32,000 bases of DNA from Psychrobacter sp. DM4 (GTDB lineage Bacteria; Pseudomonadota; Gammaproteobacteria; Pseudomonadales; Moraxellaceae). Shown here piece by piece: positions 15,082-30,220 of the stretch. The position numbers and the translations under genes were made by a program. Numbering within the stretch: position 1 is the first letter of the stretch; every line of letters begins with the position of its first letter. The stretch is taken from contig NZ_CP195536.1 of assembly GCF_051307035.1 (NCBI RefSeq), forward strand, positions 780,001-812,000, given 5' to 3'. A model generated the notes under the pieces. It searched no databases, was not told the origin of the DNA, and saw only the letters and a list, made by a program, of their open reading frames with translations.

Positions 15082-15096
15082 GTAAAGTGATAAATT

Positions 15097-15528: not shown

Positions 15529-15590
15529 AGAACCATAATAACCAACTTATTACTGTTAAAAAACTAACTTAAAATGACGAATATATAGTT

Positions 15591-17795
15591 ATGACTTCAG
15601 ATTCAAAGAACCTATCGAGACCTGCTACAGATGATACCAGCGATGTAAATATACTGGTTCTTTTGTTTTCTATATTGCGTGGTTGGAAGACAATACTATT
15701 TTTTGCGTTATTAGGGCTACTCATAGGTGTGCTATATAGCCGCTATGAAACGACTACATTCCAATCAGATGCTCTTATTCAGATCGAAAGTAGCTCAGGA
15801 GGGATCTCAGCATTGGGGTCTGGTATCTCCGATTTAGTCCCTTCAGAATCTAGTCCTGCACAGACAGAAGCTGAGCTGATAAAGTCACGTATGGTACTGA
15901 AACCTGTAGTTGACTTACTTAATCTTTCGATACGTTTAAATGATCCAACTGTAACTGCGATCGATAAAATTCAAAGCAATCGTACTTATTCTCAAGAAAA
16001 CCTCCCTACCTATGTGCTATTAGAAACCAGTGATGGTCAAGCTCAAGTAAGCCAGTTTGATGTATCAGAGGACTACCTTGATACGCTATTTACTTTGGTG
16101 AGCTCTGATAACGGCTTTACTTTGACTAGTGGTTTTGACACTTTCAAAGGTCAATTAAATAAGTCTAATCGCTTCAATGGTACTCAAGGTTTAATTGAGA
16201 TTACAGTCAATGAGTTACCTAGTGATGATCGTCCTATCAGTATCACTAAGCAGTCGCTTCAAAACACTACAAATGCGATCAATAGTGCTTTAACTGTAGC
16301 GGAAGTCGGTAATCAGACTGGTATCATTGAACTAAAAATGGTTGGGTCGAACCAAGATCAGATTAGTCGAGTTTTACGACAAATTGTATTGTCTTATATG
16401 GATCAGAACAACTCTCGTGGCTCAGAAGAGACGACCAAAACTTTAGATTTTATGGAAACTCAAATCCCAGATTTGAGGAAAGAGCTTGAGGACTCTGAAG
16501 CTGCTTTCAATAAGTTCCGTACTGAGAATGGTACTATCGATATTGAACAAGAAGCATCAATCTTAGTAGCTGAGAATGCTCGAATTGATAGCCAGTTAAG
16601 TGAGCTCAGACTAAAAAAAGCAGATTTGACAACATACTATACTGATGAACATCCATTAGTTATACAAGTTGACGATCAAATTGCAGAGTTACAAAGCAGA
16701 ATCCAAGAAGTTGATACTAGAATAGAAGGACTTCCTGAAATACAAAGAGAGTTCTTACAACTATCTGAAGACGTTAGTATCAACAGAGAAATTTATTTAG
16801 CGTTACTCAAAAACTATCAACAACTCCAGATCGTAAAGGCAGGTCAAGTAGGATTTGCGCGCATTATTGATTTGCCAATTAATACTTACCGTGCTATAGC
16901 GCCGAAAAAATCGCTGATTGTCTTAATTGCTACACTAACGGGATTATTACTCGGTATTATGGCAGTTTTGCTTAAAAACATGCTTAGAAGTGTGGTCAAA
17001 GATCCTGATCGTTTGGAGTCAAAAACAGGTGTACCTGTGATAGCTACTATTCCACGGTCACCATTATTGGCCAGATTAAACAAAAGTAAAAAATCGGCCA
17101 GTAGATTGCTTGCTCATAATGATGTTAATAGTCTTAGTTATGAAGCTATCAAAAGTCTACGAACTAGCCTGATGTTCGGTATGCCATCCGAGAGCAAATC
17201 TGGACATCGTGCGAAGGTTATACTCATTACTGGTGAGAGTCCAGGAGTCGGTAAGTCATTTATATCATCGAACTTAGCTGAGGTGTTCTCTCAGCTAAAT
17301 AAAAAGATACTAGTTATTGATGCTGACATGCGTTTGGGTGAGCTACACAAAGTATTTAATATGACGCAGGATAATGGACTGGCAGATTACTTTCAGCAAG
17401 AGGGTCAGAATCTAGTTGATGTTGTTCATCCGACTAGCTTAGACGGTGTAGACTTTATACCTAGAGGAAAAAAACCTCATAATCCAGCATCTCTACTATC
17501 TAGTGACAAGTTTAGTGGTTTAATGACAGAAGTCAGTGCACATTATGATTACATTGTTATAGACTCGCCGCCTGTACTCGCCGCCTCCGATGCAATGATA
17601 CTAGCGCAATATGCTGACAAAGTACTGATGGTGACTAGATTCGATAAGTCTATAGAAGGACAGCTAGTATATGCAGTTAAGCAACTTAATAAAGCTAATG
17701 TAAATGTTGATGGCCTAATCCTTAACGATGTAAAACAAGGTTTAATTGGCAAATACAGTTACCATTATAATTATGCATATGGTAATACTAAGTAA
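15591..17795 (+). CDS. wzc: Polysaccharide co-polymerase / BY-kinase tyrosine autokinase Wzc
   Basis: The 734-aa protein has an N-terminal TM segment, a large periplasmic coiled region and a second TM segment. The kinase domain carries Walker A GESPGVGKS, Walker A' VIDADMR and Walker B DYIVIDSPP. The C-terminal tyrosine cluster is KYSYHYNYAYG. Confidence 0.92.
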   Translation: MTSDSKNLSRPATDDTSDVNILVLLFSILRGWKTILFFALLGLLIGVLYSRYETTTFQSDALIQIESSSGGISALGSGISDLVPSESSPAQTEAELIKSRMVLKPVVDLLNLSIRLNDPTVTAIDKIQSNRTYSQENLPTYVLLETSDGQAQVSQFDVSEDYLDTLFTLVSSDNGFTLTSGFDTFKGQLNKSNRFNGTQGLIEITVNELPSDDRPISITKQSLQNTTNAINSALTVAEVGNQTGIIELKMVGSNQDQISRVLRQIVLSYMDQNNSRGSEETTKTLDFMETQIPDLRKELEDSEAAFNKFRTENGTIDIEQEASILVAENARIDSQLSELRLKKADLTTYYTDEHPLVIQVDDQIAELQSRIQEVDTRIEGLPEIQREFLQLSEDVSINREIYLALLKNYQQLQIVKAGQVGFARIIDLPINTYRAIAPKKSLIVLIATLTGLLLGIMAVLLKNMLRSVVKDPDRLESKTGVPVIATIPRSPLLARLNKSKKSASRLLAHNDVNSLSYEAIKSLRTSLMFGMPSESKSGHRAKVILITGESPGVGKSFISSNLAEVFSQLNKKILVIDADMRLGELHKVFNMTQDNGLADYFQQEGQNLVDVVHPTSLDGVDFIPRGKKPHNPASLLSSDKFSGLMTEVSAHYDYIVIDSPPVLAASDAMILAQYADKVLMVTRFDKSIEGQLVYAVKQLNKANVNVDGLILNDVKQGLIGKYSYHYNYAYGNTK

Positions 17796-17900
17796 AAAGC
17801 GTATACCATCGCAATCTAGTCAGAAACTTGATATATAAATAGATATTTTTATATTTATATTTTTTAACTTTTTTTAATTTCAAGATTAGTTGGGTAAACT

Positions 17901-19178
17901 ATGTTTGATATAAATAATATAAAAATAGCAGTCATTGGTCTTGGTTATGTTGGTTTGCCGTTAGCCGTTGAATTTGGTAAGCAGTATCCAGTGATTGGTT
18001 TTGATATCAATGCAAGTCGTATTGCATCATTACAGGCAGGCAAAGATCATACGTTAGAGGTTAGTACAGAAGAGCTCTCTCAAGCGAAACATCTAAGCTA
18101 TAGCTCAGATATTCAATCACTAAAAGACTGTAATTTCTTTATTGTGACGGTTCCGACTCCTATCGATGACTATAAGCAGCCAGATCTCACACCTTTGATC
18201 AAAGCATCAGAAGCTATTGGTGGCTTGCTTAAGTCCAACGATATCGTAGTCTATGAATCAACAGTCTATCCTGGAGCAACAGAAGAGGTCTGCATCCCTG
18301 TATTAGAAAAAGTATCAGGCCTTACCTTTAACCAGGACTTTTATGCAGGCTACAGTCCAGAGCGTATTAACCCAGGCGACAAAGAACATCGAGTAACTAA
18401 TATACTTAAAGTGACGGCAGGCTCGACGCCACAAGTTGCTGATTTTGTGGATAAAGTATATAACTTGATTATTACCGCTGGTACACATAAAGCGCCCAGT
18501 ATTAAAGTAGCGGAAGCGGCAAAAGTTATCGAGAATACACAAAGAGACGTTAACATTGCTCTCATTAATGAGCTAGCGGTTATCTTTAATAAGATGGACA
18601 TAGATACCGAAGCAGTATTGACCGCTGCGGGCACTAAATGGAACTTTTTACCCTTTCGTCCAGGTTTAGTGGGTGGTCACTGTATTGGCGTAGATCCGTA
18701 TTATCTAACCCATAAAGCTCAAGCTATCGGCTATAACCCTGAGATTATATTAGCAGGACGTCGCCTAAATGATAGTATGGGTGAGTATGTCGTCACTCAA
18801 TTAGTCAAGACGATGATTAAGAAACGCATTCAGGTCGAAGGCGCTAGAGTGCTCATATTAGGACTAAGTTTTAAAGAAAACTGTCCTGATGTGCGTAATA
18901 CAAAGGTCATCGATATTGTCCATGAGTTAGAAGAGTACAATATCGAAGTCGATGTCTATGATCCTTGGATAGACAGTGGCGAAGCTGAGCGCGAATATAA
19001 TATTACCCCAGTTAAAATGCCCTCGTCCAATCATTACGATGGTATTATCCTTGCAGTCGCTCATAGTGAATTCGTTGATATGGGTGTTGAGCGTATTAGA
19101 AACTTTGGCAAAGACAGTCATGTTCTCTATGATTTAAAGTACGTCTTTGATAAAGACAAAACTGATATACGTCTATAA
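17901..19178 (+). CDS. tviB: UDP-N-acetyl-D-glucosamine 6-dehydrogenase (TviB/WbpO/Gna family)
   Basis: It has the Rossmann N-terminus [17 protein letters not shown], the catalytic-Cys block [11 protein letters not shown] and the UDP-sugar dehydrogenase C-terminal domain. It is paired with a TviC-like epimerase. Confidence 0.88.
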
Positions 19179-19203
19179 ACATCTACAGTCATACGGAAAA
19201 ACT

Positions 19204-20232
19204 ATGATATCGACAACTTACGATGAAGTTAAAGAAAAAATAACTGCTGAGCCAAAAACATGGTTAGTCACTGGAGTAGCCGGTTTTATAGGTTCTAATT
19301 TACTCGAGACCTTGTTACTACTGAATCAAAAAGTTGTTGGTCTAGATAACTTTGCTACTGGCTTTCAGCATAACTTAGATGAAGTGCAGTCGCTAGTTAG
19401 CACAGAGCAGTGGACAAGGTTTAATTTCATAGAAGGTGATATTCGTCAATTAGAGGACTGCCAAGCAGCTTGTGTGGGCGTAGATTATGTCTTACATCAA
19501 GCGGCGTTAGGTTCAGTACCACGCTCCATTGCTAATCCTATCGCTACTAATGACACTAATATTTCTGGTTTTTTGAATATGCTTGTTGCAGCTCGCGATG
19601 CTGAGGTTACAAGCTTCACTTATGCCGCTAGTAGTTCAACCTATGGCGATCACCCTGCACTACCCAAAGTAGAGGACACTATTGGCAATCCATTGTCCCC
19701 TTATGCGGTGACCAAATATGTTAACGAGCTATATGCAGATGTATTTGCCCGTACCTATAGCTTCAATACTATAGGGCTGCGTTATTTTAATATTTTTGGT
19801 AAACGTCAAACTCCTGACGGGGCTTATGCCGCAGTGATACCTAAATGGACAGCTGCTATGATTAACGGTGATGAAGTATTTATTAACGGTGATGGTGATA
19901 CTAGTCGTGACTTCAACTTTATCGAAAATGCAGTACAAGCTAATATATTAGCCGCGACTGCCGCTGACGAGGCCAAAAACGAAGTCTATAACGTCGCAGT
20001 TGGTGGTCGTACCACACTTAATACTTTATTTAATGCCCTGAAAGAGACACTTGGTAACAACAGTGTCAAATATAGTAAAGAAGCTATTCATAGAGACTTT
20101 AGGGAAGGGGATGTTCGTCACAGTCAGGCGGATATCAGCAAGATTCAAACGTTGCTAGGCTATGACCCTCAATTCAATATTGTTCAAGGTATTGAGAAAG
20201 CTATGCCTTGGTATGTTGAGTTTTTAGGTTGA
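19204..20232 (+). CDS. tviC: UDP-N-acetylglucosaminuronic acid C4-epimerase (TviC/WbpP-like SDR)
   Basis: The start is at ATG 19204 (MISTTYDEV). It has [14 protein letters not shown] (GxxGxxG) and the SDR catalytic motif SPYAVTKY (YxxxK). The track start at 19147 would overlap tviB. Confidence 0.82.
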
Positions 20233-20249
20233 TTATATAGTGAACTTAT

Positions 20250-22049
20250 ATGTTTAAAGTAATTAGGCAGCTTTTTTCATTGCTTTCAGATAAGCAAGTA
20301 AAGCAGTTTTACGTGTTGCAAGTGCTTGTCGTCATAATGGCGTTTACCGAATTGTTAGGCATCGCTTCTATAGCTCCATTTATGGCTTTAGTAGGAGACA
20401 TCAGTCTGATAGAAGGGACAGGCGTTTTTGCTAAATTGTACCAAATAACTGGTTTAACAGATCCAACAGATTTTCTATTTTACACAGGTATAGCAGTTCT
20501 ACTAGCTCTGACTATATCTACTTTAGTTTCTATGTATACTACTTGGCAGCTTTCTCTTTATGGTGCAAGTGTAGGAACTGAAATTGCTGATCGTCTCTAT
20601 TCGTATTATATGCGAGAAGATTGGCAATTTCATGCAAGTGGTAGCAGTGCTCAGCTAACCAAACAAGTATCTACTGAAGCTATGCGTATAACAGCTGGAA
20701 TCATACAACCACTAATGCGTATGAATTCCAAAATAGTTTTAGCAGCTATCATAGCTATAAGTATTATTATCTATAATCCCGTCACAGCTATAATAGGACT
20801 GTTGATTTTTGTGATAGCCTATGTTCTATTATTTAAGATAGTGCGCAAAACGTTAGTCAATAATGGGAAAAAACTATCACAAGTTTCAACTGATCGTTTT
20901 AGACTAATGAATGAAGGATTTGGTGGTATTAAGGATGTACTATTATTAGATCGTAGCTATGATTTTACTAAACGTTTTGAAGAGAGTGGTAGGATATACT
21001 CTCGTGCTTTAGGTGTGAATACAGCACTTGGCGCTGTACCACGTTATTTCATGGAGCTAATAGCTTTTGGATCCATGATAGGCTTGGTCTTGTTATTAAT
21101 AAAACTACATGAAGGTAATTTAGGTCAAGTGTTACCTATATTAGCTGTGTATGCATTGGCAGCTTTTAAATTATTGCCAGCTCTACAGCAAGTATATACG
21201 AGTTTGGCACAAATCAAAGGTAACATAGCCGCATTTGAAGCAGTCAAGGAGGATTTAACAAAATCTTTTAATAGCCTTAAGTCTACTGAAAATAAGACAG
21301 AACCACTACGTACACAGCTAAAGAATAACATTACTCTAAATAATATTCAGTTTAGCTATCCTGGAAAAGCGATACCAGCTGTAAATGGCGTAAGTATGAC
21401 TATTCCAGCTAACGGTGTCGTCGGTCTGGTTGGGTCTTCTGGCTCTGGAAAATCGACTTTAATAGATTTGTTGCTAGGGCTGCTTACGCCTCAAAGCGGT
21501 GAGTTGTATGTGGATGACACACTTATTACGACTGATAACAAGCGCGCATGGCAAGATACGTTAGGCTTTGTACCGCAAAGTATCTTTTTGAGTGAAGGAT
21601 CGATTGCTGAGAATATTGCTTTCGGTTTACCTATTGAAGATATTAATTTGGATCAAGTTTATAAGACGCTTAAACTTGCTCATCTTACAGAACTAGTCGA
21701 ACAGCTTCCTGATGGCGTCAATACTAAAGTAGGTGAACGAGGAGTGCAGCTATCAGGTGGTCAACGTCAACGCATTGGTATTGCACGTGCTCTATACCAT
21801 GAGGCAGATGTCTTGGTATTTGATGAGGCTACTAGTGCATTGGATGGCATTACAGAAAAAGTAATCATGGATGCTATACATGAGTTCAGCGGTGAAAAAA
21901 CAATAATTATGATCGCGCATCGATTAAAGACAGTGCAAAAATGTGACATCATTTATATCATGGAACATGGTAAAGTAATTGACCAAGGTACTTACAAGCA
22001 ACTTTTAAACAACAACCCTAAATTTAAAAAAATGGCGGAGCATGCTTAA
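20250..22049 (+). CDS. ABC exporter half-transporter (fused TMD-NBD, MsbA/PglK type)
   Basis: The 599-aa protein has an N-terminal six-helix-type membrane domain. The NBD carries Walker A GSSGSGKST, the signature LSGGQRQR, Walker B VLVFDEATSALD and an H-loop IAHRL. Confidence 0.88.
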   Translation: MFKVIRQLFSLLSDKQVKQFYVLQVLVVIMAFTELLGIASIAPFMALVGDISLIEGTGVFAKLYQITGLTDPTDFLFYTGIAVLLALTISTLVSMYTTWQLSLYGASVGTEIADRLYSYYMREDWQFHASGSSAQLTKQVSTEAMRITAGIIQPLMRMNSKIVLAAIIAISIIIYNPVTAIIGLLIFVIAYVLLFKIVRKTLVNNGKKLSQVSTDRFRLMNEGFGGIKDVLLLDRSYDFTKRFEESGRIYSRALGVNTALGAVPRYFMELIAFGSMIGLVLLLIKLHEGNLGQVLPILAVYALAAFKLLPALQQVYTSLAQIKGNIAAFEAVKEDLTKSFNSLKSTENKTEPLRTQLKNNITLNNIQFSYPGKAIPAVNGVSMTIPANGVVGLVGSSGSGKSTLIDLLLGLLTPQSGELYVDDTLITTDNKRAWQDTLGFVPQSIFLSEGSIAENIAFGLPIEDINLDQVYKTLKLAHLTELVEQLPDGVNTKVGERGVQLSGGQRQRIGIARALYHEADVLVFDEATSALDGITEKVIMDAIHEFSGEKTIIMIAHRLKTVQKCDIIYIMEHGKVIDQGTYKQLLNNNPKFKKMAEHA

Positions 22050-22050
22050 T

Positions 22051-23661
22051 ATGAATACTTTACTACTGGATTGTACTCTTCGAGATGGGGGTTATTATAA
22101 TTCTTGGGACTTTTCATCTGAGCTTATCAATGACTATCTTATTGCAATGCAGTCAGCAGGTATCAACATTGTAGAGCTAGGTCTAAGATCACTGCAAAAC
22201 AAAGGTTTCAAAGGTGCTTGTGCTTTCACAACTGATGATTTTTTACGTAGTTTGCCGCTACCAGATGATTTGATCATTGGTGTGATGGTTAATGGAAGTG
22301 AATTAGTGGGTGATATCCAGCAAAATGTGGTATTGGAGCAGTTGTTTCCAGTTCCATCCGAACAGTCACCAGTAGATTTAGTACGTATTGCATGTCATGT
22401 GTATGAATTTGAAAAGGCACTACCAGCCGTCACATGGTTAAAAGAAAAAGGTTACAAAGTCGGCTTCAATTTGATGCAAATAGCGGATTGTTCAGAACAA
22501 GAAGTAAAAAAATTAGCACGTTCGGCAGCCAGCTATCCTATGGATGTTTTATACTTTGCTGACAGTATGGGTGGTATGCAACCTGATCAAGCGGCTCAAA
22601 TTATTGGTTGGCTTCGTAGTGAATGGTCGGGTGCGTTGGGTATTCATACCCATGACAATCAAGGTTTAGCACTGTCGAATACTCTGCGAGCTATTAATGA
22701 AGGTGTTACCTGGGTAGATGCTACAGTAACTGGCATGGGCCGTGGGCCAGGAAATGCACTGACCGAACAGGTTGCTATAGAAGTAGCTGCTTATCGTAAA
22801 CAACCATTAAACTTAGTACCTTTAATGACACTAATTCGTAAATATTTTGGACCAATGAAAGAAGAGTGTGGTTGGGGTAGTAATCCCTATTACTATCTTT
22901 CTGGAAAATATAATATCCATCCTAGTTATATTCAAGAGATGTTGAGTGACTCTCGCTACGATGAAGAAGATTTACTAGCAGTGATTGAGCATTTACGTGT
23001 TGAGGGTGGTAAGAAATTTAGCCTTAATACCTTAGATGCTGCTCGTCATTTTTATCATGGTAAGCCGCAAGGTACATGGTCACCAACTAGTCTGTTTGTC
23101 GATCGAGATGTCTTACTGCTAGGTACAGGACCAGGTGTCGCTAAGCATCGTACTGTGCTAGAGCGCTATATTCGCAAGGAAAAACCTTTAGTACTAGCAT
23201 TGAATACTCAGAGTGAGATCGATGCTGAACTCATTGATTTGCGTGTAGCTTGTCATCCAGTACGTTTGTTAGCAGACTGTGAAGCTCATACTAAATTATC
23301 TCAACCATTAATCACACCATATTCGATGTTACCTAAAGATGTACAGCAAGCATTAGCAAATAAAGAGGTTCTAGACTTTGGTTTGAACGTGCAGGCTGAT
23401 ACTTTCGAGTTCAATGAAACTTACTGTACTACGCCAACATCCTTGGTAATGGCTTATGCCTTCGCAATAGCTACGGGTGGTAAAGCTAAGAGACTATTAC
23501 TAGCTGGGTTTGATGGGTATGAAGGTGAGGATCCACGTAATTTTGAAATGAATAAAGTCGTAAAGACATACACCAATAACGGTAATACAATTCCATTGAT
23601 TGCGATCCTACCTTCTCGTTATGATGTGAGTATTCAAAGCGTTTACGGAGTAGTTAAATGA
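22051..23661 (+). CDS. DRE-TIM metallolyase (HMGL-like aldolase) fused to an extra C-terminal domain of about 190 aa
   Basis: The N-terminal half carries LLDCTLRDGGY, GIHTHDNQGLALSN and VTGMGRGPGNALTE, the HMGL-like/DmpG/IPMS metal-site pattern. The C-terminal part (from about 23101) has LLLGTGPG and AIATGGKAKRLLLAGFDGY. I prefer the start at ATG 22051, where GGAG lies 10 nt upstream, over the track start at 22042. Confidence 0.75.
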   Translation: MNTLLLDCTLRDGGYYNSWDFSSELINDYLIAMQSAGINIVELGLRSLQNKGFKGACAFTTDDFLRSLPLPDDLIIGVMVNGSELVGDIQQNVVLEQLFPVPSEQSPVDLVRIACHVYEFEKALPAVTWLKEKGYKVGFNLMQIADCSEQEVKKLARSAASYPMDVLYFADSMGGMQPDQAAQIIGWLRSEWSGALGIHTHDNQGLALSNTLRAINEGVTWVDATVTGMGRGPGNALTEQVAIEVAAYRKQPLNLVPLMTLIRKYFGPMKEECGWGSNPYYYLSGKYNIHPSYIQEMLSDSRYDEEDLLAVIEHLRVEGGKKFSLNTLDAARHFYHGKPQGTWSPTSLFVDRDVLLLGTGPGVAKHRTVLERYIRKEKPLVLALNTQSEIDAELIDLRVACHPVRLLADCEAHTKLSQPLITPYSMLPKDVQQALANKEVLDFGLNVQADTFEFNETYCTTPTSLVMAYAFAIATGGKAKRLLLAGFDGYEGEDPRNFEMNKVVKTYTNNGNTIPLIAILPSRYDVSIQSVYGVVK

Positions 23662-24350
23662 CAGGAAAGATAACAGCTTTTCTGCCATGTAGAGCTGGCA
23701 GTGAGCGAGTACCACATAAAAATATTAAGCCCTTTTGTAACTACAATTTTGGTCTGATCGAAATTAAGCTAAAACAGCTTGATAGTGTAGAAGGAATTGA
23801 TGAGATTGTACTCTCAACTAACGATTATGATATTTTAGAGTATGCCAACACTCTTAAAATAGAAAAATTAAGAGTACATAAAAGAAACGAACAATTATCA
23901 TCGAGTCAAACCAGTACAGATCAGTTAGTGAATCATGCGTTACATCTGATACCACAAGGTAATATTTTATGGACACATGTTACCTCTCCTTTTATTACGA
24001 ATAAGCATTATGATGAAATTATCAGCTGCTATAAAAATAAAAAGGAAGATGGTTATGATTCATTAATGACAGTGACTGAATTGTATAGTTTTTTATGGCA
24101 GGATGGAAAACCACTAAACTATGATAGAAGTTTAGAGAAATGGCCAAGAACTCAAACAATTAAACCCGTCAATGAAGTAAACAGTGCTGTTTTTCTAGCG
24201 TCTAGTGAAGTATATAAAAAAAATAATGATCGAATTGGCAGTAATCCATATTTATACAAATTGAATAAAATTATTAGTCATGATATAGATTGGCCAGAAG
24301 ACTTCGTTATTGCTGAGTGTATGGTGGAAAAAGGGGTAGTTAGCTTATGA
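23658..24350 (+). CDS. Cytidylyltransferase of the acylneuraminate (CMP-NeuAc/CMP-Kdo synthetase-like) family; second copy in the locus
   Basis: The 230-aa protein has the N-terminal P-loop-like motif AFLPCRAGSERVPHKNIKPF (compare IPARGGSKRIPRKNI in the pseF gene) and LSTND. Its start overlaps the previous stop (ATGA). Confidence 0.78.
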   Translation: MTGKITAFLPCRAGSERVPHKNIKPFCNYNFGLIEIKLKQLDSVEGIDEIVLSTNDYDILEYANTLKIEKLRVHKRNEQLSSSQTSTDQLVNHALHLIPQGNILWTHVTSPFITNKHYDEIISCYKNKKEDGYDSLMTVTELYSFLWQDGKPLNYDRSLEKWPRTQTIKPVNEVNSAVFLASSEVYKKNNDRIGSNPYLYKLNKIISHDIDWPEDFVIAECMVEKGVVSL

Positions 24351-25024
24351 AGAAAAACTTATTAAGCTATCAGACTTTTGTTTTCGACTGTGATGGAGTG
24401 ATATTGAACTCCAATAAAATTAAAACAGAAGCTTTTTATCATTCAGCTTTAGCTTACGGTGAAACAGCGGCACAAGCATTAGTTAAATACCATATTGCAA
24501 ATGGTGGCATATCACGCTATAAGAAATTTGCTTATTTTTTAGATGAGATAGTTCCTACTTTAGTTTCAAAGGTATCTGAACCAAGCTTACATGAGCTATT
24601 AGAACGTTATACTGAGATAGTATTACATGGACTATTAGCCTGTGAAGTGGTAGAAGGGCTTGAAGAATTACGTAGCAAAACGTCTGATGCTAAGTGGTTG
24701 ATAGTTTCTGGTGGTGACCAAGCCGAACTGCGTTATGTTTTTAATGAAAGAGGGCTAGCGAAGTATTTCGATGGTGGTATATTTGGCAGCCCTAATAATA
24801 AAGATGAAATCCTTGAGCGTGAAATAGAAAACAGTAATATAGAGCATCCTGCTTTGTTTTTAGGTGATAGTAAGTATGATTATTTAGCTTCAGCAGGTGT
24901 TGGAATAGATTTTGTATTTTTAACGAGATGGACGGAAGTTGAAGATTATAAAGAATGGTGTGATATTTTTAATTTGACGAGTTTGCCAAATATTAATGAA
25001 CTAAATAAATTAAAGTCAGACTAA
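24347..25024 (+). CDS. HAD-superfamily hydrolase (phosphatase-like, subfamily IA type)
   Basis: Motif I is FVFDCDGVILNS (DxDG). There is a cap region, then motif II LIVSGG, and motifs III/IV ..K..(GDSKYD). Its start overlaps the previous stop (ATGA). Confidence 0.78.
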   Translation: MKKNLLSYQTFVFDCDGVILNSNKIKTEAFYHSALAYGETAAQALVKYHIANGGISRYKKFAYFLDEIVPTLVSKVSEPSLHELLERYTEIVLHGLLACEVVEGLEELRSKTSDAKWLIVSGGDQAELRYVFNERGLAKYFDGGIFGSPNNKDEILEREIENSNIEHPALFLGDSKYDYLASAGVGIDFVFLTRWTEVEDYKEWCDIFNLTSLPNINELNKLKSD

Positions 25025-25158
25025 TAAATCTTAATATCTCTTTAATTATAAAGAGAGAAAACTATTAAGTATTTTACTTCTTAAGATCAGTTGCAATTTT
25101 TTGTATTTGTAAGCAAGTTTTCCACAGTCGATTTTGGTTTTTTTTAGGTTATGATTGC

Positions 25159-26376
25159 ATGAAAAATTTTTTAGTTTATATAAACAATTCAGAAGGAGAG
25201 TTAGATTGGATCGCTCCTTTCGTACTGTACGAAGTTATGAGAGGTATAAAGTTTAGCTTTTACTTAGACAATGTTGGAAACGACCATACAGAAAAGTCTG
25301 AAATTTTAGAAAAGTATGGACTGGACAGTAATAATCTAATAAATAATGATATTCTTTTCGATAGGTTTGATACTTTTTTTTATAAAGTTGTCAATAAGCT
25401 TAGTTATATTGCCTCAGGCAATAACAAATTTAATTATACTTTTCCTGGCAGTAAAAGGCGCAACGATTTTTTCTACTTCCTTTTAAGACCATACCTTTTT
25501 ATAAAAAAGTCCTGCTATCGAAAAAAAATCGAGGAGTTTGATGTAATATTTAGAGACTATAATTTGAAGCCTTCGCTAGCACTATCTTACTATCTGAGCA
25601 CTAATAAAGATGCTTGTGTCGTTGTTTACCCTCACGCTATTGGTATTCAACCTAATACCAATAATAGGTTACCACCAGTTAAGGTAAAATGCGATTTATG
25701 GTTAGAAAATACTGAACTTTCTCTTCATGCCAAAGACGTCTATAAGAAAGAATTCTTTGTGTCTGGTCCTCCCGCATTGTCTGATGCAAGAGACAATTCC
25801 CTGTTTAAAAGTGATTCTAAAAACATCTTAATACTAACTAGGAATTGCAACGAGGAGTATGGATTTAATCTTGATGATGCACTACTATCGTTCGAACAGC
25901 TACTCAATAGTTTATCAAAATTAGGATTTAATATTGTAATAAAACACCATCCTAGAGATATCAATATTAGAAGATGGAGAGAAATTCAAGACAAGTATGA
26001 ACGAATAGAAGAGTTTGAAGATAGTTTGTCAAATCTAAATATTGTATTAAGAGTTTGTTTGACACTTTTCAGTACTGCAGGTATATACGTTTTAGCAAAA
26101 GGCGTACCTGTAATAGACTATTCTCCTTATAAAAGTTTTTCCGACTGTAAAAAAGTTTTACCCTTTCACTTTGATAGTAAGGATTTAAAAGTAGTCACAC
26201 ATCAACTTTGTTCTTTAGGAATTTATGAACAAGAGCAAAGTATACTAAAAATTATAGAAATTATTTCAGATAAAAACCAGTTAGCTAATATGTCAGATTC
26301 TCAGAAGAAAAAATTATACACCTACTATCCTACTAATGCTAATGAGGTAATTAGTAGTAAGTTAAGAGAAATTTAG
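25159..26376 (+). CDS. Orphan soluble protein, possibly a GT-B-type (sialyltransferase/TagF-like) transferase
   Basis: The 405-aa ORF is very AT-rich and has no TM segment. The C-terminal half contains ILILTRN.., VIKHHPRD and, 41 residues later, TLFSTAG. That arrangement resembles the HP ... S-S/T nucleotide-phosphate motifs of CMP/CDP-dependent GT-B transferases. The assignment is tentative. Confidence 0.45.
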   Translation: MKNFLVYINNSEGELDWIAPFVLYEVMRGIKFSFYLDNVGNDHTEKSEILEKYGLDSNNLINNDILFDRFDTFFYKVVNKLSYIASGNNKFNYTFPGSKRRNDFFYFLLRPYLFIKKSCYRKKIEEFDVIFRDYNLKPSLALSYYLSTNKDACVVVYPHAIGIQPNTNNRLPPVKVKCDLWLENTELSLHAKDVYKKEFFVSGPPALSDARDNSLFKSDSKNILILTRNCNEEYGFNLDDALLSFEQLLNSLSKLGFNIVIKHHPRDINIRRWREIQDKYERIEEFEDSLSNLNIVLRVCLTLFSTAGIYVLAKGVPVIDYSPYKSFSDCKKVLPFHFDSKDLKVVTHQLCSLGIYEQEQSILKIIEIISDKNQLANMSDSQKKKLYTYYPTNANEVISSKLREI

Positions 26377-26424
26377 CATTTATAGTCACATTGGTCGATC
26401 AATAAAATAAATACAGGTGAATAT

Positions 26425-27372
26425 ATGAGATTTATTTTCTTAAATCATAGAGTTATTTTAAATAAGAGTGAGCTTTATATATCAAAAGTTAACAAAGCTG
26501 ATTTGATTCAAAAAGATATAAATTATGTAGATAAAGACAATATTAAAAAAATTATAGAGAATGGAGAGTCTTTTTATAAAAATAAGTTATCTGATATTTC
26601 TTTAAACCCAGATGATAAAGATTTAGAATCTATAACTGTAAGTAAATTAGAAAGAGATGGTATTGTTGTTGTACCCAACTATTTAGATGTATCTGAGGTA
26701 GATGAGTTATGCAAACTTATTGATAATGAGTCTGAAAAATATTTATTTAAACTGGGTTCTAACAAATCTTACGAAAACAGCTCAGTAATTATTCAGAAAG
26801 GTTTAGTAGTTAAAAAAAGCTTTAATGAGCTTGTTTCCAGTGATAAACCAGTAATTAATATTAGATCTGGCGCAGATGAGGGCATGGTTGATATCTTTAA
26901 TGTCGACAGGCTAATGCTAGATAAGTCAAGTTTAGGTGTCATGGGCAAAATTATAAATGATGTATTTATAAATAATTTTTTGAGTTCACTACCACAGAAA
27001 ATGAAAATAGAAAATGTCAATTTTTATGCCAATAATGGGATAACTTCTACCAGAGGCTTCCACACAGATTCATTTTCGAAACACATAAAAATTTTTATAT
27101 ATCTTACGGACGTACTGAGCTTTGATAATGGACCTTACACCTTTATTAAAGGATCTCATCTAGATACTCCTTATCGTCGTATTAATAGACATATATCAAA
27201 AGCCTTGAAAGCAGAAACTGAATCACCAATTGTTCCTTTTGAAAATGTATACCCTGTATTAGCTCCTAAGGGCTCTTTAGTTATATCTGATCAATCTGGC
27301 TTTCACCGAGGTTTTCCACAAACAGCTAATGGTAGTAGAAGAGCCTTAGTAATCAATTGTATTTGCATATAG
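26425..27372 (+). CDS. Fe(II)/2-oxoglutarate dioxygenase, phytanoyl-CoA dioxygenase (PhyH) family
   Basis: AGGTG lies 7 nt upstream of the ATG. The motifs are GFHTDS (HxD), IFIYLTDVLSFDNGPYTFIKGSH, a distal His in SGFHRG, then SRRAL. Confidence 0.75.
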   Translation: MRFIFLNHRVILNKSELYISKVNKADLIQKDINYVDKDNIKKIIENGESFYKNKLSDISLNPDDKDLESITVSKLERDGIVVVPNYLDVSEVDELCKLIDNESEKYLFKLGSNKSYENSSVIIQKGLVVKKSFNELVSSDKPVINIRSGADEGMVDIFNVDRLMLDKSSLGVMGKIINDVFINNFLSSLPQKMKIENVNFYANNGITSTRGFHTDSFSKHIKIFIYLTDVLSFDNGPYTFIKGSHLDTPYRRINRHISKALKAETESPIVPFENVYPVLAPKGSLVISDQSGFHRGFPQTANGSRRALVINCICI

Positions 27373-27380
27373 GAATAAAA

Positions 27381-28379
27381 ATGTTAAGTAATAGCACTAT
27401 TTTGATCACTGGCGGTACAGGCTCGTTCGGTAATACCTTTGTACCAATGACATTAGCAAAATATAATCCTAAAAAAATTATTATCTTCTCACGAGATGAG
27501 ATGAAGCAATGGGAAATGGCTAAAAAGTTCGTTGGTGATGATCGTGTGCGATTCTTCATTGGTGATGTCCGTGATAAAGATCGTTTATACCGTGCACTAG
27601 ATGGTGTTGATTATGTCGTACATGCTGCAGCAACTAAAATTGTTCCTACAGCGGAATACAATCCTTTTGAATGTATTAAGACCAACATAAATGGTGCCAT
27701 GAATCTTATCGATGCCTGCATTGATAAAGGTGTAAAAGGCGTCGTTGCATTATCTACGGATAAAGCCAGCAGTCCTATCAACCTTTATGGCGCTACAAAG
27801 CTAGCTTCTGATAAGTTGTTTGTTGCGGCAAACTCTTATTCTGGAGAGCATGGTTCTAAATTCTCAGTCGTACGCTATGGCAACGTTATGGGTTCTCGTG
27901 GTTCAGTCATTCCATTTTTCATGTCTATTAAAGATAGCGGAGTATTGCCTATTACTGATGATAGAATGACGCGCTTTATGATCTCATTAGAAGACGGTGT
28001 TGACTTGGTTTGGCATGCTTTTGAAGATATGATTGGCGGTGAGATCTATGTCAAAAAAATCCCGTCAATGAAAATGACTGACTTGGCTCGCGTCGTTGCT
28101 CCAGAAGCAAAACAAGAGGTCATCGGTATCCGCCCAGGTGAGAAGCTACATGAGCAGATGATTAGTGCTGAAGATGCTTACTACACTTATGAGTATCCAG
28201 ATCATTTCAAAATCTTACCTACTATTAATGAGTGGGCAACAGACCCTGCACGAATCAAGGATGGTAAGCGGGTTCCTGAAGGGTTTGAATATGCGAGTAA
28301 TAATAATCCTGAATGGATGAGTGATGATGATCTGCAAGAGTGGATTGATATCAACCGCGATAAAATTGGGAGTATTTAA
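27381..28379 (+). CDS. pseB: UDP-N-acetylglucosamine 4,6-dehydratase (inverting), PseB
   Basis: ATG 27381 is preceded by AGGAA. It has ILITGGTGSFGN, the SDR motif LYGATKLASDK, and the full-length PseB/FlaA1 layout. It is followed by pseC, pseF and pseG. Confidence 0.92.
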   Translation: MLSNSTILITGGTGSFGNTFVPMTLAKYNPKKIIIFSRDEMKQWEMAKKFVGDDRVRFFIGDVRDKDRLYRALDGVDYVVHAAATKIVPTAEYNPFECIKTNINGAMNLIDACIDKGVKGVVALSTDKASSPINLYGATKLASDKLFVAANSYSGEHGSKFSVVRYGNVMGSRGSVIPFFMSIKDSGVLPITDDRMTRFMISLEDGVDLVWHAFEDMIGGEIYVKKIPSMKMTDLARVVAPEAKQEVIGIRPGEKLHEQMISAEDAYYTYEYPDHFKILPTINEWATDPARIKDGKRVPEGFEYASNNNPEWMSDDDLQEWIDINRDKIGSI

Positions 28380-29537
28380 ATGATTCCTTATGGCCGTCAA
28401 GATATCAGTCAGCAAGACATTGACGCTGTTATTAATGTTCTAAAATCAGACTTTCTGACTCAAGGACCTCAAGTTGGTGCTTTTGAGCAAGCAGTAATAG
28501 ATGCTTGCGGAGCCAAATATGCATCTGCGGTCAATAGTGCAACATCAGCGCTTCACATCGGTTGTCTTGCATTGGGTCTGGGAGAGGGTGATTGGCTTTG
28601 GACGACACCTAATACTTTTGTGGCATCAGCGAACTGCGGGCTGTATTGCGGGGCGAAAGTCGACTTCGTCGATATCGATCCTCAGACTTATAATATGTGT
28701 GCAAAAGAGCTTGAAGAAAAGCTAATACGCGCTGAACAGTCTGGCAAGCTCCCCAAAATAGTCGTGCCTGTACATTTTAGTGGTCAGCCTTGCGATATGG
28801 AAGCGATCCATAATTTATCGAAAAAGTACGGTTTCAAAATTATTGAAGATGCCTCTCATGCTATCGGTGGTAAATACAAAGGCGAGCCTATTGGGAATTG
28901 TCGCTATAGTGACATTACTGTATTTAGCTTTCATCCGGTCAAGATAGTGACGACCGCTGAAGGCGGAATGGCAATGACCAATAGCTCGGAGCTAGCCACA
29001 AAGCTAGAGCTACTACGTAGTCATGGCATCACTCGTGACACTAGTTTGATGACTAAGACTGCTGATGGTCCTTGGTACTATGAACAGATTAACTTAGGTC
29101 TGAATTATAGAATGACGGACTTACAAGCGGCATTAGGCGTGTCTCAGATGCAACGACTAGATAGCTTTGTTACCAAGCGTCATGAGTTAGCACAGCGTTA
29201 TAATGAGCTACTCAAAGACTTACCGGTGACTTTACCTTGGCAGCATGATGATAGCTATTCAGGTCTACATTTATATGTGATTCGCTTGCAATTGGATAAG
29301 ATCGATAAAACTCACCTTGAGGTTTTTGAAGGAATGCGCGCTGCAGGTATCTTAGTGAATTTGCACTATATTCCTGTCCATATGCAGCCTTATTATCAAG
29401 AATTAGGCTTTGAAGTCGGTCAGTTTCCTCAAGCAGAACAGTATTATAAAGAAGCCATTAGTATTCCGATGTTTCCGACAATGACTGATGAGCAGCAAAA
29501 TGAGGTCGTTGCTAAGTTAAAAGAGCTATTGATATGA
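28380..29537 (+). CDS. pseC: UDP-4-amino-4,6-dideoxy-N-acetyl-beta-L-altrosamine transaminase, PseC
   Basis: This is a DegT/DnrJ/EryC1-type aminotransferase. The N-terminus is MIPYGRQDISQQDIDAVINVLKSDFLTQGPQV and the PLP-lysine block is FSFHPVKIVTTAEGG. It starts on the nucleotide after the pseB stop. Confidence 0.92.
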   Translation: MIPYGRQDISQQDIDAVINVLKSDFLTQGPQVGAFEQAVIDACGAKYASAVNSATSALHIGCLALGLGEGDWLWTTPNTFVASANCGLYCGAKVDFVDIDPQTYNMCAKELEEKLIRAEQSGKLPKIVVPVHFSGQPCDMEAIHNLSKKYGFKIIEDASHAIGGKYKGEPIGNCRYSDITVFSFHPVKIVTTAEGGMAMTNSSELATKLELLRSHGITRDTSLMTKTADGPWYYEQINLGLNYRMTDLQAALGVSQMQRLDSFVTKRHELAQRYNELLKDLPVTLPWQHDDSYSGLHLYVIRLQLDKIDKTHLEVFEGMRAAGILVNLHYIPVHMQPYYQELGFEVGQFPQAEQYYKEAISIPMFPTMTDEQQNEVVAKLKELLI

Positions 29538-30220
29538 AAATTGCTGTCATTCCAGCGCGTGGTGGTAGTAAGCGTATACCTCGCAAGAATATCAAAGAGT
29601 TTTGCGGTAAGCCGATGATTGCATATTCTATTGAGGCTGCGCTGCAGTCTGGTTGCTTTGATAAAGTCATCGTTTCGACAGATGATACAGAGATTGCTGA
29701 AGTGGCTAGACGCTATGGCGCAGAAGTGCCGTTCATCAGACCAGCAGAGCTATCTAATGACTATGCAGGTACGATTCCTGTCGTACGTCATGCAGTTGAA
29801 TGGTGTATGCAGCAAGGTGTTGATCCACAGCTGGTATGCTGTTTATATGCTACTGCTCCTTTTGTGACGCCTAAATATCTACAACAAGGTCTTCAGCAAA
29901 TTATCGAACAAGATGCTGATTATGCTTTTACGGTCACTAGCTATGCTTTTCCTATTCAAAGAGCCATCAAGATTTCTCCGCAATTAGGAATTGAGATGTT
30001 TGATTCAAATAACTTTAATACTCGCTCACAAGATTTGGAAGAAGCTTGGCATGACGCAGGTCAGTTTTACTGGGGTAAAGCAGAGGCATGGTTATCTGAA
30101 AAAATAATCTTTGGGCCTGAGTCTACCCCAGTTATTTTGCCAAGACATCGAGTACAAGATATAGATACCTTTGAAGATTGGGATAGGGCTGAATGGTTAT
30201 TTAAGGCTATGCAAGTATGA
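29534..30220 (+). CDS. pseF: Pseudaminic acid cytidylyltransferase, PseF
   Basis: It has MKIAVIPARGGSKRIPRKNIKEFCGKPMIAYSI, VSTDDTEIAEVARRYGAEVPFIRP, and a position between pseC and pseG. It makes an ATGA overlap with pseC. Confidence 0.88.
   Translation: MKIAVIPARGGSKRIPRKNIKEFCGKPMIAYSIEAALQSGCFDKVIVSTDDTEIAEVARRYGAEVPFIRPAELSNDYAGTIPVVRHAVEWCMQQGVDPQLVCCLYATAPFVTPKYLQQGLQQIIEQDADYAFTVTSYAFPIQRAIKISPQLGIEMFDSNNFNTRSQDLEEAWHDAGQFYWGKAEAWLSEKIIFGPESTPVILPRHRVQDIDTFEDWDRAEWLFKAMQV

Follow-up and report, generated by a model that had tools for sequence, protein, structure and literature searches.

Three coupled genes occupy positions 22051–25024 of the 32,000-nucleotide stretch of Psychrobacter sp. 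DM4 DNA analysed here (the window), within a Wza/Wzc capsule locus. Gene 1 (22051..23661, forward strand; 536 aa) joins a DRE-TIM/HMGL-like metallolyase to a second domain that is possibly Cst-II/MptE-like; gene 2 (23658..24350, forward strand; 230 aa) encodes a cytidylyltransferase of the CMP-ulosonic-acid-synthetase family, NeuA/PseF-like and of a distinct subfamily; and gene 3 (24347..25024, forward strand; 225 aa) encodes a HAD-IA (capped) phosphatase. The ATGA start/stop overlaps linking them, at 23658 and 24347, can be read directly in the sequence. Gene 1 has two possible ATG codons, at 22042 (a 539-aa open reading frame) and at 22051; we prefer the latter because no Shine-Dalgarno sequence precedes 22042, whereas a GGAG stands 10 nt before the 22051 start, which follows the stop codon of the preceding ABC gene by 1 nt. 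Residues are nonetheless numbered here along the 539-aa frame from 22042. The upstream gene (20250..22049, forward strand) specifies a 599-aa MsbA/PglK-type ABC exporter with fused transmembrane and nucleotide-binding domains (PF00664, PF00005), and a 405-aa polysialyltransferase-family glycosyltransferase (PF07388) is encoded downstream (25159..26376, forward strand). Further downstream in the window are pse genes, with pseF at 29534.

The N-terminal domain of gene 1 (22060..23031, forward strand; residues 7–330), a (beta/alpha)8 DRE-TIM barrel with a helical extension, matches the HMGL-like family PF00682 in profile search (E 6.9e-26; 91.6 bits, cut-off 29). All three metal-site motifs are found, DCTLRDG (10–16), GIHTHDNQG (200–208) and GMGRGPGN (231–238), the first opening the barrel signature DCTLRDGGYY, and the predicted metal ligands are D15, H202 and H204. 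Across 39 members of the family, with identities as low as 31%, these three ligands are invariant, as are D10, T12, R14, G16, N206, G231, G233, R234, G235, G237 and N238, so that the loss of metal-binding Asp or His residues, a possibility raised at the outset, finds no support in a proper alignment. The best solved relative is 3dxi (phmmer E 3.7e-44 over residues 6–317; Foldseek of the AF2 model, E 7e-19, TMt 0.89), followed by the DmpG-type aldolases 1nvm, 4jn6 and 4lrs; in the comparison of structural models the AF2 barrel matches 3dxi, 1nvm and 4jn6. By profile score, barrel fold and an Asp plus His-x-His metal site, gene 1 thus meets the criteria of the DRE-TIM metallolyase superfamily. 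Deposited by structural genomics as the 'N-terminal domain of putative aldolase BVU_2661' of Bacteroides vulgatus, 3dxi is a true member of the gene 1 family that shares the DCTLRDGGYY signature; it has no assigned function, only its barrel has been solved, and its title implies a C-terminal domain in the parent protein.

Among characterised enzymes, the class II pyruvate aldolases DmpG, BphI and HsaF, themselves DRE-TIM proteins, score best; gene 1 has their TIM barrel, their LRDG motif and their Asp/His/His metal site. DmpG models reach E 1e-30 and 3e-26, whereas no Claisen synthase model does better than 1e-22. The DmpG/BphI models nevertheless remain below their cut-offs (TIGR03217, 92.4 bits versus 286; PRK08195, 106.7 versus 229), and gene 1 falls far under the cut-off on every curated equivalog model. 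Unlike these aldolases, it sits in a biosynthetic polysaccharide locus rather than one for aromatic catabolism; no acetaldehyde or acylating aldehyde dehydrogenase partner neighbours it, either in the window or in any of the loci examined, and no match to the DmpG communication domain was obtained in gene 1. Moreover, Tyr18-Tyr19 stand where DmpG/BphI has its catalytic His (RDGxH; RDGGYY aligns to RDGSHH of 4jn6), with Tyr18 invariant in the family alignment, so that aldolase chemistry is not guaranteed. Profile searches detected neither NeuB (PF03102) nor DAHP-synthase-I homology in genes 1–3. The gene 1 barrel is a DRE-TIM metallolyase closest to the pyruvate aldolases; that it performs a pyruvate aldol condensation is inferred, without biochemical data.

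The fused C-terminal alpha/beta domain of gene 1 (23074..23646, forward strand; residues 345–535) is more elusive. Pfam returned no match to it at E<=1, PF01973 included. Its model finds its best Foldseek match in the MptE pyrophosphokinase (HPPK) 8sd5 (prob 0.97, E 0.028, TM 0.42), which is sub-significant, and when PDB sequences were searched with a family profile the ten best matches were all MptE or Cst-II/GT42 sialyltransferases, again at sub-significant E values (0.02–0.5), aligning the GxGPS and Y..A.A.G...L.G.D.Y motifs. An hhalign comparison with a DUF115-like protein from another capsule locus (L007) gave a probability of 60%, over the GxGPS motif only. The domain carries GTGPG (361–365), N388 (in ALNTQ), T466-S467 and GFDGY (489–493), and pairwise alignment to a Cst-II sequence not taken from a database record mirrors GxGPS, the Asn ('LNTQ' against 'CNQ'), TS and GxDxY. 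Residue 388 matches the Asn of Cst-II rather than the Asp of MptE at the aligned site, although this alignment is very remote; the equally remote comparison revealed no counterpart to the catalytic His188 of Cst-II, and the family alignment contains no invariant His, Asp or Glu downstream of GFDGY. Invariance is confined to nucleotide-site residues (G363, N388, P426, Y472, G489, D491 and G492). Modelled alone the domain has a pLDDT of 68.5, rising to about 80–90 in the full gene 1 model. From sub-significant scores and a model of moderate confidence, the C-terminal 200 residues may be a remote MptE/DUF115/Cst-II-like (sialyltransferase-fold) nucleotide-binding domain, nucleotide binding itself being inferred. 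The domain differs from Cst-II, Maf/DUF115 and MptE in being joined to a biosynthetic enzyme, and its conservation far exceeds that of typical glycosyltransferases: the domain is ~70% identical across genera whose surrounding glycosyltransferases and sugars are wholly different, and still 33% identical among distant members. Because of this conservation and the presence of separate glycosyltransferases, a polymer-specific transferase role seems unlikely. Most plausibly, the domain would sense or act on a conserved small molecule, as a sensor of the end product (the CMP-sugar) or a phosphotransferase, an inference made without functional data. LeuA, CimA and homocitrate synthase are DRE-TIM enzymes whose C-terminal allosteric domains respond to the pathway end product; by analogy, gene 1 would likewise pair a first-committed DRE-TIM enzyme with a C-terminal ligand-binding domain, but its C-terminal fold is unrelated to theirs and a regulatory role is a hypothesis.

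Gene 2 clears the cut-off of CTP_transf_3 (PF02348; 47 bits versus 22.6), its best solved relatives being the CMP-NeuAc synthetases 6ifd, 9t4z and 1qwj. It has the conserved motifs FLPxRxGSxRxxxKN, WTHVTSPF, WPRTQ and DIDW, and the N-terminal CTP-binding motif PxRxGSxRxxxKN is kept in 20 homologues of the window type. As a candidate PseF it was rejected, scoring 62.8 bits on the equivalog model (TIGR03584, cut-off 205.7) against 367.8 for the true pseF at 29534; the kdsB equivalog (TIGR00466) gave no match. Gene 3 exceeds the cut-offs of Hydrolase (PF00702, 46.8 bits), HAD_2 (PF13419, 39.5 bits) and TIGR01549 HAD-IA (28.5 bits, cut-off 23.3), with its best model matches to beta-PGM/YqaB and HAD-IA and none to HAD-IIIA or KdsC models. 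HAD motifs I–IV (FDCDGV, SG, K, GDxxxD) are kept in 51 cassette-linked HADs. The initial annotation, made from the letters and open reading frames alone, had described three coupled genes with these overlaps in a capsule locus, DRE-TIM metal-site motifs in a condensing enzyme that is not NeuB/KdsA-like, a CMP-NeuAc/CMP-Kdo-synthetase-family enzyme distinct from PseF, and a HAD phosphatase; each of these held, the last refined to HAD-IA. It had not seen the Cst-II/MptE-like fusion partner, the Tyr-Tyr pair replacing the DmpG His, or the tie of the ABC exporter and polysialyltransferase-like gene to the triad.

The gene 1 family comprises 917 clusters (50% identity) at E<=1e-30, nearly all listed members being ~530–545 aa with both domains. 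The two-domain aldolase occurs in at least 592 species representatives from many phyla, including SAR11 and Gram-positives such as Rossellomorea, Bacillus and Nesterenkonia. We assessed linkage in 70 evaluable loci, those with >= 2.5 kb on both flanks, seeking neighbours within 2.5 kb. A CTP_transf_3 (CMP-ulosonate-synthetase-family) gene lies near the aldolase in 60 of the 70, of KdsB-like type in 44 and of the window's NeuA/PseF-like type in 16; a cassette-type HAD is present in 47/70 and accompanies the cytidylyltransferase in 44/70, no HAD being found within that distance in about one third. Among 72 loci, the gene immediately downstream of the aldolase matches PseF in 43 and KdsB models in 36–41 (best E 4e-94). 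The KdsB-like partners clear NCBIfam KdsB subfamily cut-offs and fall just under that of the TIGR00466 equivalog (131–144 bits versus 155.2); one bears the RefSeq name '3-deoxy-manno-octulosonate cytidylyltransferase'. NeuB, KdsA and KdsD show no consistent linkage in the loci, nor does any further gene family, and five loci (L001, L002, L004, L007 and L090) contain the cassette without other CMP-sugar genes. Aldolase, C-terminal domain and KdsB-like enzyme also occur as a natural single-polypeptide fusion of 778 aa. On the strength of the linkage counts and natural fusions, the triad is a conserved, horizontally mobile cassette rather than a set of chance neighbours. The block of ABC exporter, aldolase, cytidylyltransferase and HAD recurs in the Psychrobacter capsule loci L007 and L093, and an exporter adjoins the aldolase in 8/70 loci overall; the exporter at 20250..22049 is possibly an accessory part of the module. 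Sulfotransferases are also often found as neighbours of the cassette.

The product of 25159..26376, which matches PF07388 at 28.5 bits (cut-off 23.3), is identical (100%) to the RefSeq protein 'polysialyltransferase family glycosyltransferase [Psychrobacter sp. DM4]'. In each of the six contexts examined, a polysialyltransferase-like glycosyltransferase neighbours the cassette; one of these contexts has no other CMP-sugar genes. Homologues of the window's gene adjoin the cassette in L027, L090, L091, L092 and L093. The cassette of L007, the only CMP-sugar pathway in that locus, is flanked by a DUF115/Cst-like gene; in L093 two CMP-sugar routes are accompanied by two sialyltransferase-like glycosyltransferases, a polysialyltransferase-like one by the triad and a GT52 enzyme by pseI. 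The enzyme encoded at 25159..26376 may thus be the transferase for the cassette's CMP-activated product, although this assignment is inferred.

The arrangement recalls the Kdo (KdsD-KdsA-KdsC-KdsB) and Kdn/Neu5Ac-9-P routes, in which a C3 donor is joined to a phosphorylated aldose, a HAD enzyme dephosphorylates the product, a CTP_transf_3 enzyme activates it and a sialyltransferase-like enzyme transfers it; most cassette cytidylyltransferases are, as in the Kdo pathway, members of the KdsB subfamily. Unlike these routes, the cassette has a DRE-TIM condensing enzyme, expected to use pyruvate, in place of the PEP-dependent KdsA (DAHP-synthase-like) or NeuB, a capped type IA HAD in place of the cap-less (HAD-IIIA) KdsC/Kdn-9-P-phosphatase, and an extra fused Cst-II/MptE-like domain. 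On balance we favour, with moderate confidence, the view that the triad makes a CMP-activated 3-deoxy-2-ulosonic acid (Kdo-, Kdn- or sialic-acid-like) for the capsule without a NeuB/KdsA PEP-dependent synthase. The metal-dependent DRE-TIM domain would form a pyruvate enolate and couple it with a phosphorylated aldose to produce a phospho-ulosonic acid; the HAD-IA phosphatase would remove the phosphate, pulling the reversible aldol reaction forward; gene 2 would convert the sugar acid to its CMP-glycoside; and the polysialyltransferase-like enzyme would attach it to the repeat unit of the capsule. The downstream pse genes would supply a second, independent donor, CMP-pseudaminic acid. Since gene 3 is a capped HAD-IA rather than of the KdsC/Kdn-9-P-phosphatase type, it might instead act on a sugar phosphate earlier in the route. 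What is established for the triad comprises its gene structure and domain families, the intact catalytic motifs, the conserved linkage together with the natural fusions, and the lack of canonical synthases, whereas the chemistry, step order, product and role of the fused domain are all inferred, with no biochemical or genetic data for any member. The route first suggested, condensation of pyruvate with a sugar aldehyde to give a 3-deoxy-2-ulosonic acid that is then CMP-activated, is thus supported by comparative data, its chemistry and the identity of the sugar acid remaining inferences; the accompanying statement that no characterised pathway has this composition held in the literature and curated models searched, where the cassette is neither described nor assigned to a known pathway. 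To our knowledge, no polysaccharide structure has been determined for any carrier strain.

Three alternatives deserve consideration, none of which we think likely. The first leaves the pathway unchanged and takes the fused C-terminal domain to be a GT42/Maf-like glycosyltransferase that passes the CMP-activated sugar acid to an acceptor; gene 1 would then unite synthase and transferase, and the cassette would suffice to make the sugar, activate it and transfer it. The mirrored CMP-binding motifs of Cst-II, with Asn388 in place of the MptE Asp, favour this reading, as does the lack of any one additional glycosyltransferase family linked in all loci. Against it, the domain's identity between genera with different sugars and among distant members is unusual for an acceptor-specific glycosyltransferase, its invariance does not extend beyond the nucleotide site, no His188 equivalent was found, and dedicated sialyltransferase-like glycosyltransferases adjoin the cassette wherever examined.

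In the second, gene 1 would be a Claisen-type synthase (isopropylmalate-, citramalate- or homocitrate-like) combining acetyl-CoA with a 2-oxo acid, and the triad would attach a hydroxy acid, not a sugar, as substituent by way of a CMP- or CDP-linked intermediate. This takes up the non-sugar version of an alternative offered by the initial annotation, a CMP-activated non-sugar or pyruvate-derived substituent. Homocitrate and isopropylmalate synthase models do match gene 1 (E 1e-22 to 1e-16), and the DmpG catalytic His is missing. However, gene 1 has RDGGYY instead of the Claisen signature RDGEQ, no LeuA_dimer regulatory domain was detected in it, and DmpG-type models and structures match it best. 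The partner cytidylyltransferases, moreover, are KdsB-like or NeuA/PseF-like, families in which no characterised member is known to make anything but CMP-2-ulosonic acids, and the accompanying glycosyltransferases belong to sialyltransferase families.

In the third, the cassette would serve capsules or O-antigens that contain Kdo, providing ordinary CMP-Kdo as a back-up or dedicated source: a known sugar from a non-canonical enzyme, formed from pyruvate and arabinose-5-phosphate or, in a Kdo-aldolase-type reaction, from free arabinose released by the HAD. Most partners score just under the KdsB equivalog threshold, sulfotransferases are frequent near the cassette, sulfated Kdo-containing polysaccharides occur in related marine Halomonadaceae, and a pyruvate-dependent Kdo aldolase activity exists (EC 4.1.2.23) to which, as far as we know, no gene has been assigned. 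Yet arabinose-5-phosphate isomerase is not linked, Gram-positives, as a rule without a Kdo pathway, carry the cassette, the window's own cytidylyltransferase is NeuA/PseF-like rather than KdsB-like, and the neighbouring glycosyltransferases are polysialyltransferase- or DUF115-like rather than Kdo transferases of the KpsS/KpsC or WaaA kind.

Returning to the preferred reading of an unconventional CMP-ulosonic acid pathway, a bolder version, which could as readily prove wrong as right, is that the cassette represents a widespread third route to CMP-ulosonic acids, shared by hundreds of species ranging from SAR11 to Bacilli, in which a class II (DRE-TIM) pyruvate aldolase would replace NeuB/KdsA, the fused, degenerate sialyltransferase-fold domain would act as an end-product sensor or phosphotransferase, and polysialyltransferase-like enzymes would install the product. 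If this is true, the sugar acid may be one that still lacks an assigned gene set.

Within a Wza-Wzb-Wzc capsule locus, recognized by profile matches, three forward-strand genes make up a compact cassette: an HMGL-like (PF00682) two-domain aldolase-type protein (gene 1; 22042 or 22051 to 23661), a CTP_transf_3 (PF02348) cytidylyltransferase (gene 2; 23658-24350) and a HAD-family phosphatase (gene 3; 24347-25024). An initial annotation had assigned these three families and reported ATGA couplings at 23658 and 24347; the family calls held in profile searches, and the overlaps were confirmed by direct reading of the sequence. Its start for gene 1, 22051, is also preferred, because a GGAG lies 10 nt ahead of this ATG, which itself comes 1 nt after the stop of the upstream ABC exporter gene, whereas inspection of the sequence upstream of the ATG at 22042 revealed no ribosome-binding site. 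Residue numbers here refer to the 539-aa ORF beginning at 22042.

The N-terminal part of gene 1 matches PF00682 (E = 6.9e-26) and adopts a (beta/alpha)8 barrel in the AlphaFold model (mean pLDDT 80.6). By both structure and sequence its best match is PDB 3dxi, a Bacteroides vulgatus structure entitled ‘N-terminal domain of a putative aldolase BVU_2661’ (Foldseek E = 7e-19, TMt 0.89; phmmer E = 3.7e-44), followed by the DmpG/HsaF pyruvate aldolases 1nvm, 4jn6 and 4lrs, so that the comparison with DmpG proposed at the outset places DmpG-type structures directly after 3dxi. Curated models rank DmpG-type aldolases first (E = 1e-30 and 3e-26) and homocitrate/isopropylmalate synthases next (1e-22 and weaker), all scoring far under the family cut-offs. 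Across 39 family members, down to 31% identity, D10, C11, T12, R14, D15, G16, G17 and Y18 are invariant, as are H202, H204, N206, D226, T228, the GxGRGxGN motif at 231-238 and E242, from which we conclude that the metal site and the enolate-stabilizing Arg are intact. The call of a DRE-TIM metallolyase with its metal-site motifs thus held; loss of the metal-binding Asp or His residues would have refuted it, but D15, H202 and H204 are all retained in this alignment. Members share the signature DCTLRDGGYY, in which an invariant Tyr stands where DmpG has its catalytic His (RDGxH; RDGSHH in 4jn6) and which is not the RDGEQ of Claisen synthases either. Together with the closest characterized matches being pyruvate aldolases, this pattern identifies the barrel as a distinct DRE-TIM subfamily nearest those enzymes, its aldolase chemistry being inferred.

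Gene 2 scores 47 bits against PF02348 (cut-off 22.6) and has intact NeuA-type motifs. Against the PseF model TIGR03584 (cut-off 205.7) it reaches only 62.8 bits, compared with 367.8 bits for the true pseF at 29534; it is clearly not a second PseF, as had been claimed from the sequence alone. Gene 3 is of the HAD-IA type, with motifs I-IV intact.

The two-domain aldolase family comprises 917 clusters at 50% identity with E<=1e-30, nearly all listed members being 520-560 aa long, and more than 6,300 proteins in a 90%-clustered database. A scan of one genome per species confirmed at least 592 loci, with carriers in Gamma-, Alpha- (SAR11, roseobacters) and Betaproteobacteria, Bacilli, Actinomycetota, Cyanobacteriota, Omnitrophota, Elusimicrobiota and Bacteroidota; the architecture is both ancient and common. 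We ran the suggested co-occurrence check over 70 loci in which the aldolase is flanked on each side by 2.5 kb or more, counting neighbours within 2.5 kb: a CTP_transf_3 cytidylyltransferase is present in 60, a cassette-type HAD in 47, both in 44 and an MsbA-like ABC exporter in 8. The HAD is not nearby in a third of this set, and, as ORFs in the comparison loci were called crudely (taking the first start codon and choosing greedily on the same strand), these counts are approximate. All-against-all neighbour clustering and Pfam counts at positions +2 to +4 revealed no other consistently linked family, NeuB, KdsA and arabinose-5-P isomerase included. The cytidylyltransferases are of two kinds, the NeuA/PseF-like type of gene 2 (230 aa; 16 loci) and a KdsB-like type (~245 aa; 44 loci). 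KdsB models match the gene directly downstream of the aldolase in 36-41 of 72 loci (best E = 4e-94), and examples of these partners lie over the NCBIfam KdsB subfamily cut-offs and just under the kdsB equivalog cut-off; a Leisingera plasmid copy is named in RefSeq as aldolase, ‘3-deoxy-manno-octulosonate cytidylyltransferase’ and HAD. In locus L090 (101-2437), aldolase, C-terminal domain and KdsB-like cytidylyltransferase form one natural 778-aa polypeptide. Polysaccharide loci in Oceanisphaera, Halomonas, Paenalcaligenes and Psychrobacter, together with L090, contain the cassette without other CMP-sugar genes.

A 781-aa protein in the 50% library (P0287) is similar in length to the L090 fusion, from which we do not infer its architecture. 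Locus L091 (1859-7763) has the order NeuB, HMGL-like two-domain protein, HpcH/HpaI aldolase, ferredoxin-like protein, HAD, KdsB-like cytidylyltransferase, one further gene and a polysialyltransferase-like gene, possibly a more elaborate version of the pathway. In Candidatus Symbiopectobacterium endolongispinus (L075, 7959-9578) the aldolase gene survives only as four ORF fragments, with the HAD and cytidylyltransferase still present, probably reflecting pseudogenization in a host-restricted symbiont. In the actinobacterial Nesterenkonia sp. NBAIMH1 (L006, 8364-10690), the cytidylyltransferase is 67% identical to that of Psychrobacter and IS/transposase genes lie near the cassette, which suggests recent inter-phylum transfer; no HAD is adjacent. 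Sulfotransferase genes occur a few kb from the cassette in Oceanisphaera (L001, 5593-6645), Halomonas garicola (L009, 10999-11958) and the Leisingera plasmid (L089, 13982-14683 and 18196-19128), a recurrence that hints, tentatively, at a product found in sulfated polysaccharides.

The first gene after the HAD (25159-26376, forward strand; PF07388) encodes a glycosyltransferase named in RefSeq as polysialyltransferase family; its 100% identity to the RefSeq protein of Psychrobacter sp. DM4 places the window in that strain or one almost identical to it. This family is small, with 35 database matches, and was beside the cassette in each of the six contexts we inspected: the window, L027 (Saccharospirillum), L090, L091, L092 and L093. 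L090 is a Wzx/Wzy locus without pse or NeuB genes. The sister Psychrobacter capsule locus L093 shares the ABC-aldolase-cytidylyltransferase-HAD-polysialyltransferase block and also carries pseBCFGHI followed by a GT52 sialyltransferase; it thus combines two CMP-sugar routes with two enzymes of sialyltransferase type, one adjoining each pathway. In L007, a third Psychrobacter capsule type, the ABC-aldolase-cytidylyltransferase-HAD block is followed by a 265-aa DUF115/Cst-like protein, and no other CMP-sugar pathway is found in the locus. From these contexts we infer that the cassette product is likely to be a CMP-linked, sialic-acid-like donor.

The C-terminal domain of gene 1 (residues ~340-539) has no Pfam match. 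Foldseek with the full-length model returned TIM-barrel matches only; modelled separately, at lower confidence (pLDDT 68.5), the domain has MptE HPPK 8sd5 as its top match (probability 0.97, E = 0.028), with SteA next. A PDB-wide search with a profile from 40 diverse family C-terminal domains gave ten best matches that are all MptE or Cst-II/GT42 sialyltransferases (E = 0.024-0.5), aligned on GxGPS and ‘Y..A.A.G...L.G.D.Y’ motifs. Pairwise BLAST of the domain with a Cst-II sequence aligns TSLVMAYAFAIATGGKAKRLLLAGFDGY to TSGVYMCAVAIALGYKEIYLSGIDFY, a lead only, in agreement with the profile search. Membership of the MptE/DUF115/GT42 fold therefore rests on three weak, concordant lines, each sub-significant by itself, and remains a possibility. 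In the 39-member alignment the sole invariant residues of the domain are G363, N388, P426, Y472, G489, D491 and G492, positions that we take to be those lining the CMP site in Cst-II; residue 388 is Asn, as in the Cst-II ‘CNQ’, rather than Asp as in the aligned MptE ‘VADGA’, and the family alignment offers no residue equivalent to the catalytic His of Cst-II. A SIS (KdsD-like) identity, raised by a GxGxS-like motif, was rejected, as neither the fold search nor the profile search returned a SIS structure. Identity in the domain is 70% among close homologues and 33% among distant ones (75% and 42% for the barrel), although the glycosyltransferases flanking the cassette are unrelated, which favours a role on a conserved small molecule. 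Two roles may be envisaged: sensing of the CMP-sugar end product, for which the regulatory domains of LeuA, CimA and homocitrate synthase offer an analogy, and MptE-like phosphotransfer. Both are favoured over a polymer glycosyltransferase role.

While the genes, families and motifs are established, every chemical step is inferred. In the proposed pathway, the DRE-TIM domain would join the metal-bound enolate of pyruvate to a phosphorylated aldose drawn from central metabolism; the HAD-IA phosphatase would dephosphorylate the product, rendering a reversible aldol reaction effectively irreversible; gene 2 would form the CMP-glycoside; and the polysialyltransferase-like enzyme would install the sugar acid. 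Comparative context supports the initial reading of a pyruvate-plus-aldehyde condensation leading to a CMP-ulosonic acid. The product might range from C6 to C9 (KDG/KDGal-, DAH-, Kdo- or Kdn-like), a Kdo-like acid being favoured because KdsB-like partners preponderate.

The cassette occurs in Gram-positives and has no arabinose-5-P isomerase linked to it, both of which argue against plain Kdo. In its logic it resembles the Kdo, Kdn and Neu5Ac-9-P routes, but it belongs to none of them, failing membership tests for NeuB/KdsA, DmpG, PseF, KdsB-equivalog and KdsC. The E. coli K3 sugar, 4-deoxy-2-hexulosonic acid, is 4-deoxy rather than 3-deoxy, and E. coli genomes gave no nucleotide match to gene 1. 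A phosphonate or CDP-alcohol pathway is rejected, there being no PEP mutase and the cytidylyltransferase not being LicC/IspD-like; a phosphonate-inventory paper shares only Pfam names with the cassette. Prior assignment of orthologues to a known pathway would have refuted the proposal; none was found in curated models, which do not name the cassette, or in the open literature searched, and RefSeq names of members are generic only. Subscription-only literature was outside our scope, so an existing characterization is not excluded.

The MsbA/PglK-type ABC exporter (20250-22049, forward strand; 599 aa, with its transmembrane and nucleotide-binding domains fused) stops 1 nt short of gene 1, and two further Psychrobacter capsule types (L007 and L093) share the ABC-aldolase-cytidylyltransferase-HAD block. 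No Wzx-like gene was found in the part of the locus checked (13957-31954), so the exporter is a possible lipid-linked-glycan flippase; it might instead be specific to the cassette product. Between the polysialyltransferase-like gene and pseB lies a forward-strand PhyH-family Fe/2-oxoglutarate dioxygenase-like gene (26425-27372; PF05721, E = 2.6e-8), which by analogy with KdoO could perhaps add a hydroxyl group to a sugar or sugar acid; other loci do not retain it with the cassette, and it sits in the lowest-GC stretch (~0.31, against 0.41-0.44 for the pseudaminic-acid genes). GC content across 22000-27500 is mosaic (gene 1, ~0.39-0.41; genes 2-3, ~0.32-0.34; 25159-27372, ~0.31), consistent with a capsule locus assembled in modules through recombination. 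A formyltransferase-like ORF (Formyl_trans_N, fmt/ArnA-like; 31268-31954, forward strand), directly after and overlapping pseG, might point to N-formylated pseudaminic acid; L093 has an acetyltransferase in its place.

Ulosonic acids, among them Kdo, Kdn and the sialic, pseudaminic and legionaminic acids, are key surface determinants in virulence, in recognition by phages and the immune system, and in vaccine design, and genome mining for them relies on NeuB/KdsA-type synthase markers. To our knowledge, all bacterial ulosonic-acid routes begin with a PEP-dependent synthase of the NeuB or KdsA type; a cassette that relies on an unrelated aldolase, if our reading is correct, would escape such mining, and this one occurs in at least 592 species representatives, abundant marine lineages and Gram-positives among them. 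Knowing the product would give function to thousands of proteins annotated as ‘aldolase catalytic domain-containing protein’ or misnamed ‘KdsB’, and may account for unassigned ‘Kdx’-type sugars in polysaccharide structures. Its identification would also provide a pyruvate-based biocatalyst for making sugar acids and uncover a new use of the sialyltransferase fold.
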